The notes under the pieces: generated by a model
Database searches by the model: none
What the model saw: only the letters and a program-made list of their open reading frames with translations
What the model was told of the DNA's origin: nothing
In this document: piece by piece, positions 30,385-40,466 of the stretch
How positions within the stretch are numbered: the first letter of the stretch is position 1
Layout of the letters: each line of letters opens with the position of its first letter
Assembly (NCBI GenBank): GCA_016202605.1
Contig: JACQOJ010000074.1
Coordinates: 4,499 to 68,498 of the forward strand
Source of the DNA: Betaproteobacteria bacterium
GTDB taxonomy: Bacteria > Pseudomonadota > Gammaproteobacteria > Burkholderiales > SG8-41
Direction of reading: 5' to 3'
DNA: 64,000 bases
Made by a program: the position numbers and the translations under genes

Positions 30385-33246
30385 ATGACCGATCTGTCCG
30401 ACTTTTCCTTTTCCGGTTTCTGGCGGGTGCTGCCACGGGATGCCGATCCGGTGGAGACACGCGAATGGCTGGATGCTTTCGACGCGGTCATCGAGTCCGA
30501 AGGCAGCGAGCGCGCGAATTTCATCCTGCGCAAGCTTCTCGACCGCGCGCGGGCGCGGCGGGTGCCTCTGCCGCCGGTGCTCAACACGCCGTACTGCAAC
30601 ACCATTTCGCTCGCCGACCAGCCGCAATATCCCGGCAACCTCGACATCGAGAGCCGCATCATCGCCATCGTGCGCTGGAACGCGCTCGCCATGGTGGTGC
30701 GCGCGAACCGCGAGCACGCGGAACTGGGCGGCCATATCGCGACCTACGCGTCGATCGCCGATCTCTTCGAGGTCGGATTCAACCATTTCTTCCGCGCGGC
30801 CGGTACCGGTGACGGCGCTGCAGCCGGCGGCGGGGACCTCGTCTACTTCCAGCCGCATGCTTCGCCCGGCGTCTATGCGCGGGCTTTCCTCGAAGGCCGC
30901 CTGACCGAGGAACAGCTTGCAAACTACCGGCGTGAGACTGCCGGAGCGGGACTCCCCTCCTACTGCCATCCGTATCTCATGCCCGAGTTCTGGCAGTTCC
31001 CCAACGCCTCCATGGGTGTGGGCCCGATCACGGCGATCTACCAGGCACGCTTCATGCATTATCTCGAGCACCGCGGCATTCTCGAAACCGCGGGCCGCAA
31101 GGTGTGGGCCTTCGTCGGCGACGGCGAGATGGACGAACCCGAGTCGCTCGCGGGCCTGTCCGTGGCGGCGCGCGAAGGGCTCGACAACCTGATCTTCGTC
31201 GTGAACTGCAATCTCCAGCGCCTTGACGGACCGGTGCGCGGCAACGGTTCGATCATCCAGGAGCTGGAAGGCCTGTTCGCGGGCGCCGGCTGGAACGTGG
31301 TCAAGCTGCTGTGGGGATCGGACTGGGATCCGCTGTTCGCGCGCGACGAGGAAAGCGTCATCCTCAAGCGCCTGCACGAAACGGTGGACGGCGAGTTCCA
31401 GAAATACGCGGCGACCGACGGGCGCTTCAACCGCGAGCACTTCTTCAACAAGTATCCCGAACTCAAGGCGATCGTCGCGCATCTGTCGGATGAAGACATC
31501 GACCGCCTGCACCGCGGCGGCCACGACCCGATCAAGATCTACGCAGCGTACCACGCCGCGGTCAACCACAAGGGCCGGCCCACGGTGATCCTGGCGCAGA
31601 CCAAGAAGGGCTACGGCATGGGCCACTGGGGCCAGGGCAAGATGGGCGCCCACCAGGCCAAGAAACTGGAGGACGAAGCGCTGCTCGCGTTCCGCGACCG
31701 CTTCGCGCTGTCGCTTTCGGCGGAAGACGTCCAGAACCTGCGCTTCTACAAGCCTCCGATGGACAGTCCGGAAATGAGATACCTGCACGCACAGCGCGGC
31801 AAACTGGGCGGTTATCTTCCGGCGCGGCCGCGTGCGGCGCCGGCGCTTCCGGTTCCTGCGCTCGCCGCTTTTTCACGGCTTCTCGAAGGATCCAACGGGC
31901 GCGAGGAATCGACCACCATGGCCTTCGTGCGCCTGCTCTCGCAACTGCTCAAGGACGCGCAGATCGGCCGGCGCGTCGTTCCCATCGTCGCCGACGAAGC
32001 GCGCACGTTCGGGATGCAGTCGCTCTTCCGCCAGGTCGCCATCTATTCCGCGGTCGGACAACTCTACGAACCCGAGGACCGCGACGAGCTGCTCTACTAC
32101 AAGGAAGCGCAGGACGGGCAGATCCTCGAGGAAGGCATCACCGAGGCGGGCGCGATGTCGTCGTGGATCGCGGCGGCGAGCGCCTACAGCGCGCACGGCG
32201 TGCCGATGGTGCCGTTCTACATCTTCTACTCGATGTTCGGCTTCCAGCGCGTGGGCGACTTCCTGTGGGCGGCGGCGGACTCGCGCGCGCGCGGATTTCT
32301 AATCGGCGCCACCGCCGGGCGCACCACGCTGTCGGGCGAAGGCCTGCAGCATCAGGACGGATCGAGCCAGCTCGTCGCATCGACCGTGCCCAACTGCGTT
32401 TCGTACGACCCCGCGTTCGGCTACGAGCTGGCGGTGATCGTACACGATGGAATGCGCAGGATGCTCGAGAAGCAGGAGGACGTTTTCTATTACATTACCG
32501 TCATGAACGAAAACTATCCGCAGCCGGCCATGCCGGGCGAACCCTCACCCCCGCCCCTCTCCCGCACTGATGCGCGAGAGAGGGGCGATTCGAGGCGCGC
32601 AGGCCCGCGTGCGCGCGAGGATGCGATTGAAGGCATCCTCCGCGGCATGCACCTGGTCCGTCCCTCTTCCCTGCCTCTGCCCGCGGGAGAGGGTCGGGTG
32701 CAAGGTTCAGGGTTCAAGGTTCAAGGTTCAAAGCTCGAGGTTCAAGGGTTGAAGCGCGTCCAGCTTCTCGGCAGCGGCACCATCCTGCGCGAAGCGCTGG
32801 CCGCAGCGGACATGCTCGAAAAGGATTTCGGCATCGGCGCAGACGTGTGGAGCGTCACGAGTTTCACCGGGCTGGCGCGCGATGGCATGCGCGTGGAGCG
32901 CTGGAACCGCCTGCACCCCGAGGCGCCGCCCCGCGAAACCTGGGTGGATTCTTGCCTCAAAGACCATGCGGGTCCGGCGATCGCCGCAACCGATTACGTC
33001 CGCGGCTACGCCGAGCAGATCCGCGGCCTGGTCCGCCGATCCTATACCACGCTCGGCACCGATGGCTTTGGCCGCAGCGATACTCGCAGCGCGCTGCGCG
33101 CGTTCTTCGAGGTCGATCGCAACCACATCGCGATCGCGGCGCTGAAGGCACTCGCCGAACAGGAAATCCTGCCGGCCTCCACCGTCCGCGGCGCCATCGA
33201 CAAGCTCGGCATCGATGCGGAGCGCATCGAGCCCTGGCTCACGTGA
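30385..33246 (+). CDS. aceE: Homodimeric 2-oxoacid (pyruvate/2-oxobutyrate) dehydrogenase E1, AceE/MdeB type
   Basis: DADPVETREW, LGGHI, GDGEMDEPES TPP motif, GEGLQHQDG, LGTDGFGRSD. No E2/E3 adjacent. Confidence 0.93.
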   Translation: MTDLSDFSFSGFWRVLPRDADPVETREWLDAFDAVIESEGSERANFILRKLLDRARARRVPLPPVLNTPYCNTISLADQPQYPGNLDIESRIIAIVRWNALAMVVRANREHAELGGHIATYASIADLFEVGFNHFFRAAGTGDGAAAGGGDLVYFQPHASPGVYARAFLEGRLTEEQLANYRRETAGAGLPSYCHPYLMPEFWQFPNASMGVGPITAIYQARFMHYLEHRGILETAGRKVWAFVGDGEMDEPESLAGLSVAAREGLDNLIFVVNCNLQRLDGPVRGNGSIIQELEGLFAGAGWNVVKLLWGSDWDPLFARDEESVILKRLHETVDGEFQKYAATDGRFNREHFFNKYPELKAIVAHLSDEDIDRLHRGGHDPIKIYAAYHAAVNHKGRPTVILAQTKKGYGMGHWGQGKMGAHQAKKLEDEALLAFRDRFALSLSAEDVQNLRFYKPPMDSPEMRYLHAQRGKLGGYLPARPRAAPALPVPALAAFSRLLEGSNGREESTTMAFVRLLSQLLKDAQIGRRVVPIVADEARTFGMQSLFRQVAIYSAVGQLYEPEDRDELLYYKEAQDGQILEEGITEAGAMSSWIAAASAYSAHGVPMVPFYIFYSMFGFQRVGDFLWAAADSRARGFLIGATAGRTTLSGEGLQHQDGSSQLVASTVPNCVSYDPAFGYELAVIVHDGMRRMLEKQEDVFYYITVMNENYPQPAMPGEPSPPPLSRTDARERGDSRRAGPRAREDAIEGILRGMHLVRPSSLPLPAGEGRVQGSGFKVQGSKLEVQGLKRVQLLGSGTILREALAAADMLEKDFGIGADVWSVTSFTGLARDGMRVERWNRLHPEAPPRETWVDSCLKDHAGPAIAATDYVRGYAEQIRGLVRRSYTTLGTDGFGRSDTRSALRAFFEVDRNHIAIAALKALAEQEILPASTVRGAIDKLGIDAERIEPWLT
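32542..32750 (+). repeat. Palindromic element and CAAGGTT heptamer array inside the aceE coding sequence
   Basis: CCCTCACCCCCGCCCCTCTCCCGC...GCGAGAGAGGGG (32542-32585), GCGGGAGAGGGTCGGGTG (to 32700), and about 7 copies of CAAGGTT (32701-32750). Confidence 0.8.
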
Positions 33247-33264
33247 GGTTCGCCTGTAGTTACT

Positions 33265-33522
33265 GTGTCATGCCCGCGTAGAGCCTGCCCTCGAGTGCTT
33301 TAATCGGGGGGCGGGCATTCAATTTTCGCCGCGTTGAAATTGGATTCCCATCTTCATGGGAATGACAAAGGTCTGTCATGCCCGCGTAGGCGGGCATCCA
33401 ATTTTCGCCGCGTTGAAATTGGATTCCCGTCTTCATGGGAATGACAAAGGTCTGTCATGCCCGCGTAGGCGGGCATCCAATTTGTCGTGGTTCAGATGAG
33501 ATTCCCGATTGTTCGGGAACGA
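33265..33522. repeat. Cluster of GTCATGCCCG/GGGAATGAC REP-like palindromes with a tandemly duplicated ~74-bp unit
   Basis: TTCGCCGCGTTGAAATTGGATTCCC..GGGAATGACAAAGGTCTGTCATGCCCGCGTAGGCGGGCATCCAA occurs twice. Confidence 0.85.
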
Positions 33523-33532
33523 CACAGCAGAT

Positions 33533-34552
33533 TCAGTTCCCGGGGACAAGGCGCGTCATCGGCATACCGGCGCCGATGTACACGTCCTGGGGGCCGGGAC
33601 CGCCGGCGACCGCGATGTAGATCTCGTCTGGACTCCGGGCGCGCCACACGGTATTCGCATCGCCACGGCCGGCGGCGATTTCCATCTGCGCGAAGTCGGT
33701 CGCAAAGTGCGATACCGGCAACCGCGCAAGTTCCCATAACCGCTGCCGGATGTCGCGCTTGGTAAGTCCGGCGCCATGCAGCGATTCCGCGTGGTTGACG
33801 CCGAGCAGCAGCAGCGCGCCGTCGCCTCCGCCGTACATCGGCGGCATGTTGGTCGCGATCTGGCGCAGGATCTCGTCCGGGCCCACGCCCTCGCCGCCCG
33901 AAATATTGCAGAAGTTCGACGCCTTGAATACGGTGACGGTGCTGTCTTCGCGGGAAAATCCGCGATCCACATGGAACGGCGCCCACGGATTCTCTTCCTC
34001 GTTCTCGCCGCAGATGTAGGAGTAGCGCAGCGGCGAGCCGAAGCTCACCTTCGAATATATGCCGGGCAGCGCGCCGCCGATATTGTTGAGGATGAGGCGA
34101 ATCGCGCGGCCGATGGTCGCATTCGCGCGCCATCCCGGTCCGAGGCAGCCGGTGCCGAAATTGATCTCGAGCTCGTGACGCACCGGTCCGTTGACGAGCA
34201 GAAAGGGCGTCATCGGGTTGGTCGTCACCTGCATGAATTCGAGCGGATAGTTGGGATCGGTCAACCCGTCCACCGCGGCGACGAGGAGCGGCATGTACTC
34301 CGGACGGCATCCGGCCATGACCGCGCTCACCGCGATCGCCTCCACCGTCGCCCTGCCCTTGCGCGGGGGCAGCAAGGCGATTACCTCTTCCGCCGCGCGG
34401 CCGCTTGCGGCAATGAACCGGTCCACGGCCTCCGGTGTTGCGGGGATGATGGGCAAGCCGTCGGTCCAGCCCTGTTCGTACGCGTGCTCGTAAGCGAGCG
34501 TGATCAGCTCCGCTGCCGACGGAGCCTCGAGTTGTTTTTGGGCGTGTGTCAT
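33533..34552 (-). CDS. Conserved hypothetical protein, partner of the UGSC protein
   Basis: GWTDGLPIIP, AVMAGCRPEY, GPGWRANATIGRA, ENEEENPW, VAGG. Starts 13 nt after the UGSC gene with GGAG RBS. Confidence 0.85.
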   Translation of the reverse strand: MTHAQKQLEAPSAAELITLAYEHAYEQGWTDGLPIIPATPEAVDRFIAASGRAAEEVIALLPPRKGRATVEAIAVSAVMAGCRPEYMPLLVAAVDGLTDPNYPLEFMQVTTNPMTPFLLVNGPVRHELEINFGTGCLGPGWRANATIGRAIRLILNNIGGALPGIYSKVSFGSPLRYSYICGENEEENPWAPFHVDRGFSREDSTVTVFKASNFCNISGGEGVGPDEILRQIATNMPPMYGGGDGALLLLGVNHAESLHGAGLTKRDIRQRLWELARLPVSHFATDFAQMEIAAGRGDANTVWRARSPDEIYIAVAGGPGPQDVYIGAGMPMTRLVPGN

Positions 34553-34565
34553 CGAAGGTGCTCCA

Positions 34566-35222
34566 TCATACAGGCACCGAGGCGCGCACCATGCCCTCGG
34601 GATGAATCTGCCGCTTCGCGATGTCCTTCAACCGGGTTTCGATCTCGGCCGGCGGCAGCGTGAGCCCTTCGACGAGCGTGCCGATCATCGCTTCGGCACG
34701 GACGCGCAACGCCTCCGGCTCGAGCTGGCGGATGGGGTTCGGGGTCTCCGCGATGATCACGTACGGGCAACCCTGCGTGGACGACATGCGCCGCGCGAAC
34801 TGCGCGAAGGTATCGGTGACGATCATCGCCGTCGGGATGCCGCGGGCTTCAAGAGCGGGGGTGACGTGGCTACACCACGTCGTGCACGAGCCTCAGTCGC
34901 CGGTCGCGGTGATCGCCACGTCGACGCGGCTCGCGAAATTGTCGAGCGTCTCGCGCATGGTATCGAGCAGTTTGCCGGTGCGAATCGGCAGTTCGCGCAC
35001 CGGCTGCTCGATGACCAGCGCCTTCAGGCGATAGCGTTCCTCGAGCAGGGTCCCCACCGCCTTGAGGATGTGCAGCGCCGAGGGCCGCCAGTTCGGCAGC
35101 AGCCCCACCACCTTGCCCTCCAGCGTCGCGGGGCGCGGCGCAAGCGTGCCGCTCGTCTCCGCCTCGTCCAGGTAAACGGGAAGAGGCGAAACCATCGTGA
35201 GGCGCATCATGGACTCGGACAT
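34566..35222 (-). CDS. UGSC-family thioredoxin-like predicted selenoprotein (Sec at TGA 34893-34895)
   Basis: ORFs 34893..35222 and 34566..34826 are one frame joined by ATGD-U-GSCTTWCSHVTPALEARGIPTAMIV. 218 aa. AAGGAG RBS. Confidence 0.9.
34863..34881 (-). promoter_or_regulatory. SECIS-like hairpin of the UGSC gene
   Basis: GACGUGG-UGUAG-CCACGUC, beginning 11 nt after the UGA. Confidence 0.72.
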
Positions 35223-35278
35223 GGATGACTCCTTTTCTGAAAAATGGCTCGTTTAATACCCCATCGGGGATGGTTGAA

Positions 35279-35420
35279 ATTGGATTCCCGATTGTTCGGG
35301 AATGACAAGAGAAGCCCCCTCGGGAATGACACAAGCGTGTCATTCCCGCGCAGGCGCGTTGTGTCATGCCCGCGCAGAGCCTGCCCTCGAGTGCTTTAGT
35401 CAGGGGCGGGCATCCAATTT
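35279..35420. repeat. REP-like palindrome cluster
   Basis: GGATTCCCG..CGGGAATGAC, GTCATTCCCG and GTCATGCCCG..CGGGCATCCAA units. Confidence 0.8.
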
Positions 35421-35473
35421 CGTGATGCTGAAACTTGATTCAGGTCAAGCATGGGCTTCGCATGGCGCCAGGT

Positions 35474-39521: not shown

Positions 39522-40466
39522 TTACTCCATAGGTACGTCGATCGCAATCTCGTGTCCGGCGGCAATCCACGCCTCCAGACCGCCTTCGAGCGGGCGCACG
39601 CGTTTGAACCCCTTGTCCATCAACAGGCGGGCGACACGCGCCGCGCTCGCTTCATTCGGTCAACTGCAGTACACCACCACGTCGTGGTCCGGGGGCACCG
39701 CGGCAAGACTGATCCCGGGAACGTTGATGTCCACCGCAACCGCACCCGGAATGCGACGCGGATCGAGCCGGCGCGCCATGCCCGACCGGGCATCAAGTAT
39801 CACCAGTTCAGCTCCACTTCGCATCAGGTCGTGCAACTCCCCGACGCTGATGCGGACCATCCGCAGAAAGCGAATGAGGAGGTAGCGCTCCAACCCCTTG
39901 ATCCCGGCGTAGGCCGCAATGATACCCGCGAGCAGCATCAGCGCGCCGGTGCCCGTGTTCACCAGCCACGCGAGGGCCTGCTCCACTTCGGAGTGAAAAA
40001 ACATCCCGGCAACCACCGGCACCGCGGCCCACAGCAACGCACCCGCGGAGCTGTAGCCCGCGAATCGCCCGATGTCGAGACGCATCGTGCCGGCCAGCGG
40101 CGGCGCCACCGTCGCGAACCCCGGAATGAACTTCGCCACCACGAGCGACGGGGCACCCCAACGCTCGAAAATGTTCTCCGTCTGCTTGACGCACGAGTCC
40201 GGTTCGATCGCTATGCGGCAGAGCGTGCGCAGGATGCGGTATCCGTGGCGCCGGCCGGCGACGAACCACAGCGCATCGCCGAGCAACGATGCCGCGACCG
40301 CCGTCACGAGCACCCCGGCCATGGCGAGTTCTCCCTGCTGCACGAACGCTCCGGCCACCACGAGCACCGGGATCGCCGGCACCGGCAGCCCGGCCTGGGT
40401 GAGGAACACGTTCACGAACACCAGCGTCAATCCATGCTGGGCGAGGAGGTTCGTCATTTCCTGCAT
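39522..40466 (-). CDS. DedA/VTT-rhodanese fusion, predicted selenoprotein (Sec at TGA 39660-39662)
   Basis: DedA motifs (GLPVP, AKFIPG) and rhodanese motifs (ILDAR, IPGA). Readthrough VVYCS-U-PNEASAARVARLLMDKGFKRVRPLEGGLEAW...PME-TAA completes the rhodanese fold and ends 9 nt before the doxX start. Confidence 0.9.
39627..39650 (-). promoter_or_regulatory. SECIS-like hairpin of the DedA-rhodanese gene
   Basis: GCGGC-GCGU-GUCGC core with a bulged GCG/CGC extension. Loop GU at +23/+24 after the UGA. Confidence 0.55.

Follow-up and report, generated by a model that had tools for sequence, protein, structure and literature searches.

UGSC proteins are listed as uncharacterised in several accounts of selenoproteins (PMC13188914, PMC1976440, PMC9312934, PMC5029168). 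Zhang and Gladyshev supposed a thioredoxin-like fold for them in 2008, and the fusion of UGSC to a domain called Unknown_1 has been in print since that report, whose Fig. S1A presents it with one conserved Cys and gives no function (PMC2398784). In proline reductase, a member of the described systems that UGSC most resembles, the Sec of PrdB attacks the alpha-carbon of the PrdA-bound substrate, and the PrdB U151C variant is inactive (PMC11229817). The apical loop of bacterial SECIS elements has a conserved G, according to a figure legend in PMC1976440. The locus described here agrees with the published family (PF24696, NF041046; PMC2398784) in its UGSC motif and in a partner that matches the Unknown_1 alignment. 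Where the part of the 2008 account that deals with UGSC offers one fusion and a thioredoxin-like guess (PMC2398784), we find a near-obligate module, a relation to GrdB/PrdB, an expansion in copy number and a link to TrxB. None of these four was found in the openly readable papers searched.

The UGSC gene and its selenocysteine codon

The window, the whole 64,000-nt stretch of DNA that was analysed, contains the following features of the locus.

35222-34566, minus strand: UGSC-family selenoprotein gene, a single 218-aa frame if the TGA at 34895-34893 is read through
34895-34893, minus strand: predicted Sec UGA, codon 110, in a UxxCxxxC motif
34863..34881, minus strand: bacterial SECIS-like hairpin, nt +12 to +30 after the UGA, loop starting GU
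34568-34566, minus strand: stop TGA of the UGSC gene
35229..35234, minus strand: ribosome-binding site of the UGSC gene, AAGGAG, seen in the sequence
34552-33533, minus strand: partner gene, 339 aa, Unknown_1 family of Zhang and Gladyshev 2008
33264-33524, no strand: REP-like palindromic cluster between a convergent pyruvate dehydrogenase E1 gene and the partner
35271-35438, no strand: REP-like palindromic cluster upstream of the UGSC gene

The original prediction joined two in-frame ORFs through D-U-G-S-C-T-T-W-C, around residue 110, into one Sec-containing protein of the UGSC family, and both the joining and the family assignment are borne out. The Pfam model for UGSC (PF24696) matches the read-through protein with 133.1 bits (cut-off 25) over residues 15-188, which span both halves, and a GGAG ribosome-binding site precedes the UGSC gene as well as the partner gene. 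Because the Pfam cut-off is exceeded while the NCBIfam model NF041046 scores 101.2 bits, under its equivalog cut-off of 125, the protein is placed in a divergent subfamily (UGSCTTWC) within the Pfam family. The third Cys that had been noted in addition to UxxC is present here and is a trait of this subfamily rather than of the family as a whole.

Codon 110 is TGA in all 78 homolog alignments that span it (80 loci from other genomes) and at the equivalent site of all 7 other UGSC copies in the same genome. A larger sample of 150 loci was assembled from the 80 fetched loci, 60 regions from the host's family selected among the top scorers of 870 matches, 3 hits from the class and 7 regions of the host's own genome; over these, 164 of 167 homologous sites are TGA, three are Cys codons and none is TAA or TAG. 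Cys-type forms are also present in plasmid records and in fusions. The host genome (2.8 Mb, 74% complete) encodes selA, selB and tRNA-Sec, and selB is present in 28 of 31 genomes of the host's family. As a practical consequence, the UGA splits every Sec copy of UGSC in gene-caller output.

Downstream of the UGA, the perfect 7-bp hairpin at a distance of 11 nt, also part of the original prediction, proved to be conserved. It can be drawn as seven pairs closing a 5-nt loop or as eight pairs, including a U-G wobble, closing a 3-nt GUA loop, and in the latter register (nt +12 to +19 with +23 to +30) all eight pairs form in 87 of 113 distinct Sec sites, compared with 4% in synonymous-codon controls. 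The G at +20, in the loop, is kept in 99 of the 113. Pairs are swapped at several stem positions (T-A 63 and A-T 34; G-C 91 and C-G 21), swaps that are tied to amino-acid changes and come from Sec sites among which related sequences are not independent. The 8-bp register pairs poorly at 16 Sec sites from other subfamilies; of the three Cys sites, two also form 6-7 of the 8 pairs. As in hairpins of the SelB type, the structure begins about 11 nt after the UGA and carries a G in the apical loop; the same UGA-to-hairpin spacing of 11 nt is that of E. coli fdhF.

Since TGA occupies 164 of 167 sites, the hairpin is conserved and selA, selB and tRNA-Sec are encoded in the genome, the UGA at codon 110 is almost certainly read as selenocysteine, a conclusion drawn from sequence. 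That it is instead a true stop, leaving two short ORFs or a pseudogene, is very unlikely. The sequence-based nature of the case for readthrough and the failure to find selD above cut-off in the 74%-complete host assembly would favour such a stop; they stand against a site that is never TAA or TAG and elsewhere carries Cys codons, a single Pfam domain over both halves of the frame, the conserved hairpin that follows, and Sec machinery in the host and its relatives.

The partner gene and its linkage to UGSC

As first described, the partner begins 13 nt after the UGSC stop and is a 339-aa protein with strongly patterned motifs (TDGLP, AGC, RANATIGRA, ENEEENPW and VAGG). Conserved residues include D31, C82, T111, N144, R149, E183, E185, W190, H194 and H254; of 250 sequences, 95% keep Cys82 and about 81% have another Cys near position 180. 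By-eye comparison shows that residues 74-133 plainly correspond to the aligned segment of Unknown_1 (AVxxVMAGCRPEY...NG; PMC2398784). The description of the partner as uncharacterised thus holds for its function, none being given with the published alignment, and fails for the family itself, which had already been reported as Unknown_1 (PMC2398784 Fig. S1A). Sequence searches of Pfam, NCBIfam and the PDB returned no match, and the predicted structure (pLDDT 94.5) has no clear solved relative. With 4,913 clusters at 50% identity, no model in Pfam or NCBIfam and no solved protein clearly related to it, this large family is a place to look for a new fold and new chemistry.

The best structural match of the partner model (residues 84-339), a weak one, is the alpha subunit of class I (Fe-S) fumarate hydratase. 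A partner that is itself a metal- or Fe-S-dependent lyase or isomerase for organic acids, with UGSC providing a ligand or keeping the centre reduced, is nevertheless improbable: the match has a TM-score of 0.23 and an rmsd of 15.9 A, profile similarity to the hydratase family (PF05681) is absent at an HHalign probability of 0.1%, and the partner has only one or two conserved Cys, without the three-Cys cluster motif. Persistent Sec use and the TrxB linkage described below also suit turnover of a redox pair better.

The pairing itself is observed almost throughout the samples. UGSC was found in 74 of the 80 loci fetched via the partner, the six misses having the partner at the locus edge. By profile search of the 150 loci, 164 of 174 partner domains (6 short partial hits left out) have UGSC within 1.5 kb on the same strand; nine of the others lie at an edge and one has no UGSC. 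A further 20 loci, drawn from other Pseudomonadota, Chloroflexota, Myxococcota and deltaproteobacteria, show the link for all 25 of their partners, and a sample of 16 from the 24 plasmid records with a hit shows it for 15 of 16. Two of the plasmid links are weak, and most UGSC proteins there are natural Cys forms, haloarchaea included. Among the 174 partner domains 37 are fused in frame to UGSC. Fusions are known in both orders, some without one or both motif residues, and a natural Cys fusion was modelled as one unit with a pTM of 0.92. Co-occurrence and fusion had been set beforehand as the comparison that could refute a two-gene module; the partner is tied to UGSC or CGSC genes almost everywhere, and UGSC and its partner are a near-obligate module.

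Several partner architectures extend beyond the simple pair. Tandem-duplicated partners exist, among them eight proteins of 616-741 aa with two tandem partner domains and no UGSC domain (P0123-P0127, P0130, P0249, P0266), hinting that the partner is dimeric. A NifU-like CxxC domain is fused to or lies beside the partner in P0195, P0199, P0214, L104:1188-1451 and L228:11987-12262, one partner protein (P0262) carries the catalytic chain of ferredoxin-thioredoxin reductase, and partners fused to other domains also occur.

In the host's family the partner is present in 60 of 61 genomes, at 2 to at least 32 copies each, and the sole genome without it (84% complete) is also without selB. Among sampled genomes of the class it was found in only 4 of 300, and among those of the phylum in only 7 of 401, counts that include the host's own genome and rest on few scored candidates per genome. 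The closest loci are labelled uncultured Betaproteobacteria or Burkholderiales from soil and groundwater. Copy numbers of at least 32 per genome would make the pair one of the largest selenoprotein expansions in bacteria. A Sec-type pair also lies beside IS1071 and IS91 on the IncP conjugative plasmid of Acidovorax sp. T1 (NZ_CP021650.1), suggesting mobile catabolic spread.

Relation to GrdB/PrdB and a probable electron supply

The literature's guess of a thioredoxin-like fold for UGSC (PMC2398784), repeated in the original prediction, is not supported. The UGSC model is a five-stranded alternating beta-alpha domain in which each strand is followed by a helix and the motif follows strand 3, whereas thioredoxin has the order beta-alpha-beta-alpha-beta-beta-alpha with CxxC after the first core strand. 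Like thioredoxin-fold UxxC selenoproteins, UGSC has UxxC at a helix N-terminus and a link to thioredoxin reductase; unlike them, it is predicted to lack a beta-hairpin, its strands always being separated by a helix, and its profile similarity to thioredoxin is at background level (HHalign 0.5-0.6% against thioredoxin and redoxin, with a positive control at 89%).

Comparison of UGSC with a GrdB/PrdB-like region gave, by contrast, an HHalign probability of 84.7% (E 6.7e-6, 83 columns) with Sec aligned on Sec, against a background of at most 0.46% for 15 column-shuffled templates; the template is shallow and the match remote. With PrdB-like sequences alone the value fell to 35.6%. The NCBIfam PrdB model (TIGR04483) scored the protein at 17 bits (E 0.0027) against a cut-off of 300, there was no PF07355 hit, and all scores lay far under the GrdB/PrdB family cut-offs; of 49 Cys-type UGSC proteins, just 2 matched the GrdB model (E 0.038). 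The UxxCxxC spacing of GrdB appears in part of the UGSC family (16 of 153 pattern matches), and sequence search of a PDB copy found no solved GrdB relative. On profile evidence, UGSC is a remote homolog of the catalytic region of GrdB/PrdB at the superfamily level and not a member of either family.

The comparison extends to organisation. UGSC shares with GrdB/PrdB (PF07355, TIGR01917, TIGR04483) a UxxC that follows a strand and opens a helix, an E..G.P.V pattern after it, a later proline motif and the apparent requirement for a larger second subunit, and it resembles glycine reductase, which thioredoxin reductase feeds, in its link to such a reductase. It lacks their long N-terminal part; nothing in its partner points to a pyruvoyl subunit such as GrdE/PrdA, and the partner matches no Pfam or NCBIfam family and is not GrdE-like (0.2% profile similarity, with one GrdE sequence as comparison). 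No GrdA- or GrdC-type genes recur near UGSC modules, in contrast to glycine reductase, and the hosts include aerobes and haloarchaea, with many natural Cys forms. Proteins matching the described families are also encountered in these bacteria. PF07355 matches occur in 27 of 41 genomes of the host's family; a betaproteobacterium of this family has a full-length GrdB-type selenoprotein (UxxCxxC) with a GrdE-like gene downstream (L110, G333:C148:4943-7507), and the host genome has an AhpD-like gene followed by a PrdB-like selenoprotein (TPV-U-PNC) at G000:C73:14283-14649 (L123).

Several observations connect the module to thioredoxin reductase-like enzymes. The host genome has the order selA-selB-TrxB-like-tRNA(Sec) at G000:C48:2582-7218 (L239), with a TrxB-like gene that scores 217 bits against TIGR01292, under its cut-off of 343. 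Such a gene (VSQCADCDGP) directly follows selB in 22 of 25 loci of the family (L231-L255), the other three ending at a contig edge, and tRNA-Sec comes next in 15. TrxB-like genes with the VSxCAxCD motif adjoin modules in 4 of the 150 mainly Sec-type loci, one of them in the host genome, and a TrxB-like gene also neighbours the module in 7 of the 16 plasmid stretches and in 4 of the 20 further loci; the orders trxB-trxA-partner-UGSC in Arthrobacter and partner-UGSC-trxB in Roseovarius are examples. By an informal estimate, these rates are above expectation at one or two such genes per genome, modestly so for 4 of 150. In 14 of 15 pattern matches in 61 genomes a CxxC redoxin is fused to the partner via RPG-UGA-GS, whereas the reversed pattern gave no match; UGSC follows this type of paralog. 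One such fusion, with a CPTC redoxin, is in the host genome (G000:C96:4662-6191, minus strand, L262; L256-L269 are alike), and the fusion has no NCBIfam match. The linker UGA is a probable second Sec site, as judged from sequence, and a Cys form, RPGCGS, occurs in four other genomes (L212, L213, L214, L217).

The same TrxB, thioredoxin and redoxin links also fit a substrate-specific reductase of S-O or S-S bonds in small organosulfur compounds (disulfides, sulfoxides or sulfinates), in which electrons would pass from TrxB via redoxin, linker Sec/Cys and UGSC UxxC to Cys82 of the partner, much as in methionine sulfoxide reductases. The high conservation of Cys82, the frequent Cys near 180 and sporadic organosulfur neighbours speak for this alternative. 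These neighbours comprise TauD (at 8 of the 150 loci), phosphosulfolactate synthase (on two of the 16 plasmid stretches), DsrE/TusA/cysteine desulfurase near the pair in Paracoccus and an alkanesulfonate-monooxygenase-like gene at one locus. Sulfur-related neighbours, given here as raw counts, are nonetheless a minority, and UGSC resembles the carbon-attacking GrdB/PrdB rather than thioredoxin. We regard an S-bond reductase as possible, on the unlikely side.

A further alternative, in which the pair serves general antioxidant defence or metal(loid) detoxification and lacks a specific organic substrate, would agree with the common assumption that bacterial UxxC selenoproteins are redox proteins, as that source words it for most of them (PMC13188914). 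Three loci from alphaproteobacteria or other Pseudomonadota place the pair in the sel cluster or next to it, and several alphaproteobacteria have it inside that cluster with no catabolic genes there. That a genome can carry dozens of divergent copies next to transporter and catabolic genes fits substrate diversification better, however, and neither UGSC nor the partner has a peroxiredoxin-like match in Pfam or NCBIfam, making this role rather unlikely.

Genomic surroundings and a proposed reaction

The pair in the window is flanked by the convergent pyruvate dehydrogenase E1 gene and a helix-hairpin-helix gene, and has no catabolic neighbour. Both of the REP clusters said to bracket it are present, but a 10-mer core of their repeat turns up at 112 places in the genome, so the module has no special claim to them. 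Within the E1 gene, window positions 32520-32760 contain an in-frame insertion in which REP-like repeats are accompanied by short tandem ones (GGTTCAA).

Over the 150 loci, the commonest neighbours are genes for TctC receptors (90 loci) and MmgE/PrpD (34 loci), with LysR, enolase-superfamily, CoA-transferase, dehydrogenase and TauD genes in addition. Profile searches hit 156 TctC/Bug and 32 MmgE/PrpD genes in the 2.8 Mb of the host genome, over whose density the local enrichment is, by a rough comparison, about 2.2-fold and 2.6-fold, respectively. In the host genome these two families show an extreme co-expansion with the UGSC module. Cultured hosts have neighbours such as CoA-transferases, lyases, aconitase X, phosphosulfolactate synthase and transporters, which converge on no single pathway. 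Neighbours differ from locus to locus and point to no one substrate.

Given the remote homology, the obligate partnering and the reductase linkage, we judge a Sec attack as in PrdB to be the likeliest chemistry. Our preferred reading, put forward tentatively as a plausible one, is that the pair may be a TrxB-fed, Sec-nucleophile enzyme of reductive cleavage acting on a small organic substrate. From the conserved Sec codon and SECIS element, the linkage and fusion, the GrdB/PrdB homology and the TrxB/redoxin linkage we infer the following catalytic steps. With a small organic substrate bound by the partner, the UGSC selenol would attack it and reductively cleave one of its carbon-heteroatom bonds, by analogy with glycine and proline reductase, with a thioether, amine or halide as candidate leaving group. 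The partner would supply the substrate pocket and activation through its polar residues (D31, C82, T111, N144, R149, E183, E185 and H254), replacing the pyruvoyl subunits GrdE/PrdA. Sec110 would form an adduct with the substrate, which Cys113 would resolve to a selenenyl-sulfide, and NADPH would re-reduce the enzyme via the TrxB-like enzyme encoded within the selAB-selC operon, acting directly or through a redoxin or thioredoxin, sometimes one fused to the partner by the second Sec/Cys linker. Paralogs may take different substituted organic acids imported by TctC-type receptors.

Several points weigh against this reductive-cleavage reading, besides the variable neighbours and the remoteness of the GrdB/PrdB match noted above. 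The U151C form of PrdB is inactive (PMC11229817), yet many UGSC proteins are natural Cys forms and some fusions lack one or both of the motif residues. Because the partner is not similar to GrdE, the substrate-activating step has no known counterpart. The TrxB of the sel operon could serve other selenoproteins of the genome, TrxB-like genes adjoin just 4 of 150 loci in the mainly Sec-type sample, and TctC and MmgE/PrpD are abundant in these genomes anyway. More doubtful is the broader possibility that the pair represents a widespread, undescribed superfamily of selenium-dependent reductive lyases. Such enzymes would couple a pared-down GrdB-like Sec subunit to a partner whose fold seems new and whose activation of the substrate needs no pyruvoyl, would draw on a dedicated TrxB hard-wired in the sel operon and would number dozens per genome in betaproteobacteria that abound in soil and groundwater; they might be the main reason these bacteria keep Sec, and a general means to break C-N, C-S and C-halogen bonds in organic acids. 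With the partner, the likely electron donor and the relation to GrdB/PrdB defined, the question of UGSC function becomes directly testable, and natural Cys versions occur in culturable hosts (Arthrobacter, Roseovarius, Variovorax and haloarchaea).

Other candidate selenoproteins were encountered along the way. On the minus strand of the window, 39522-40466 encodes a DedA-rhodanese fusion with a likely in-frame Sec (UGA 39662-39660, YCS-U-PN), whose read-through product scores 69 bits against the NF041203 model for rhodanese-related (seleno)proteins, under the cut-off of 115. Elsewhere in the host genome, an in-frame TGA in an OsmC-like context (SIGF-U-LLTQ; G000:C119:34458, plus strand) has coding signal on both sides and is a candidate selenoprotein site. 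An in-frame TGA at G000:C6:3185 (plus strand; EEHA-U-MTLVAGLRAA), again with coding signal on both sides, marks either Sec or a broken gene, in a frame that presumably resembles a CoA-transferase subunit.
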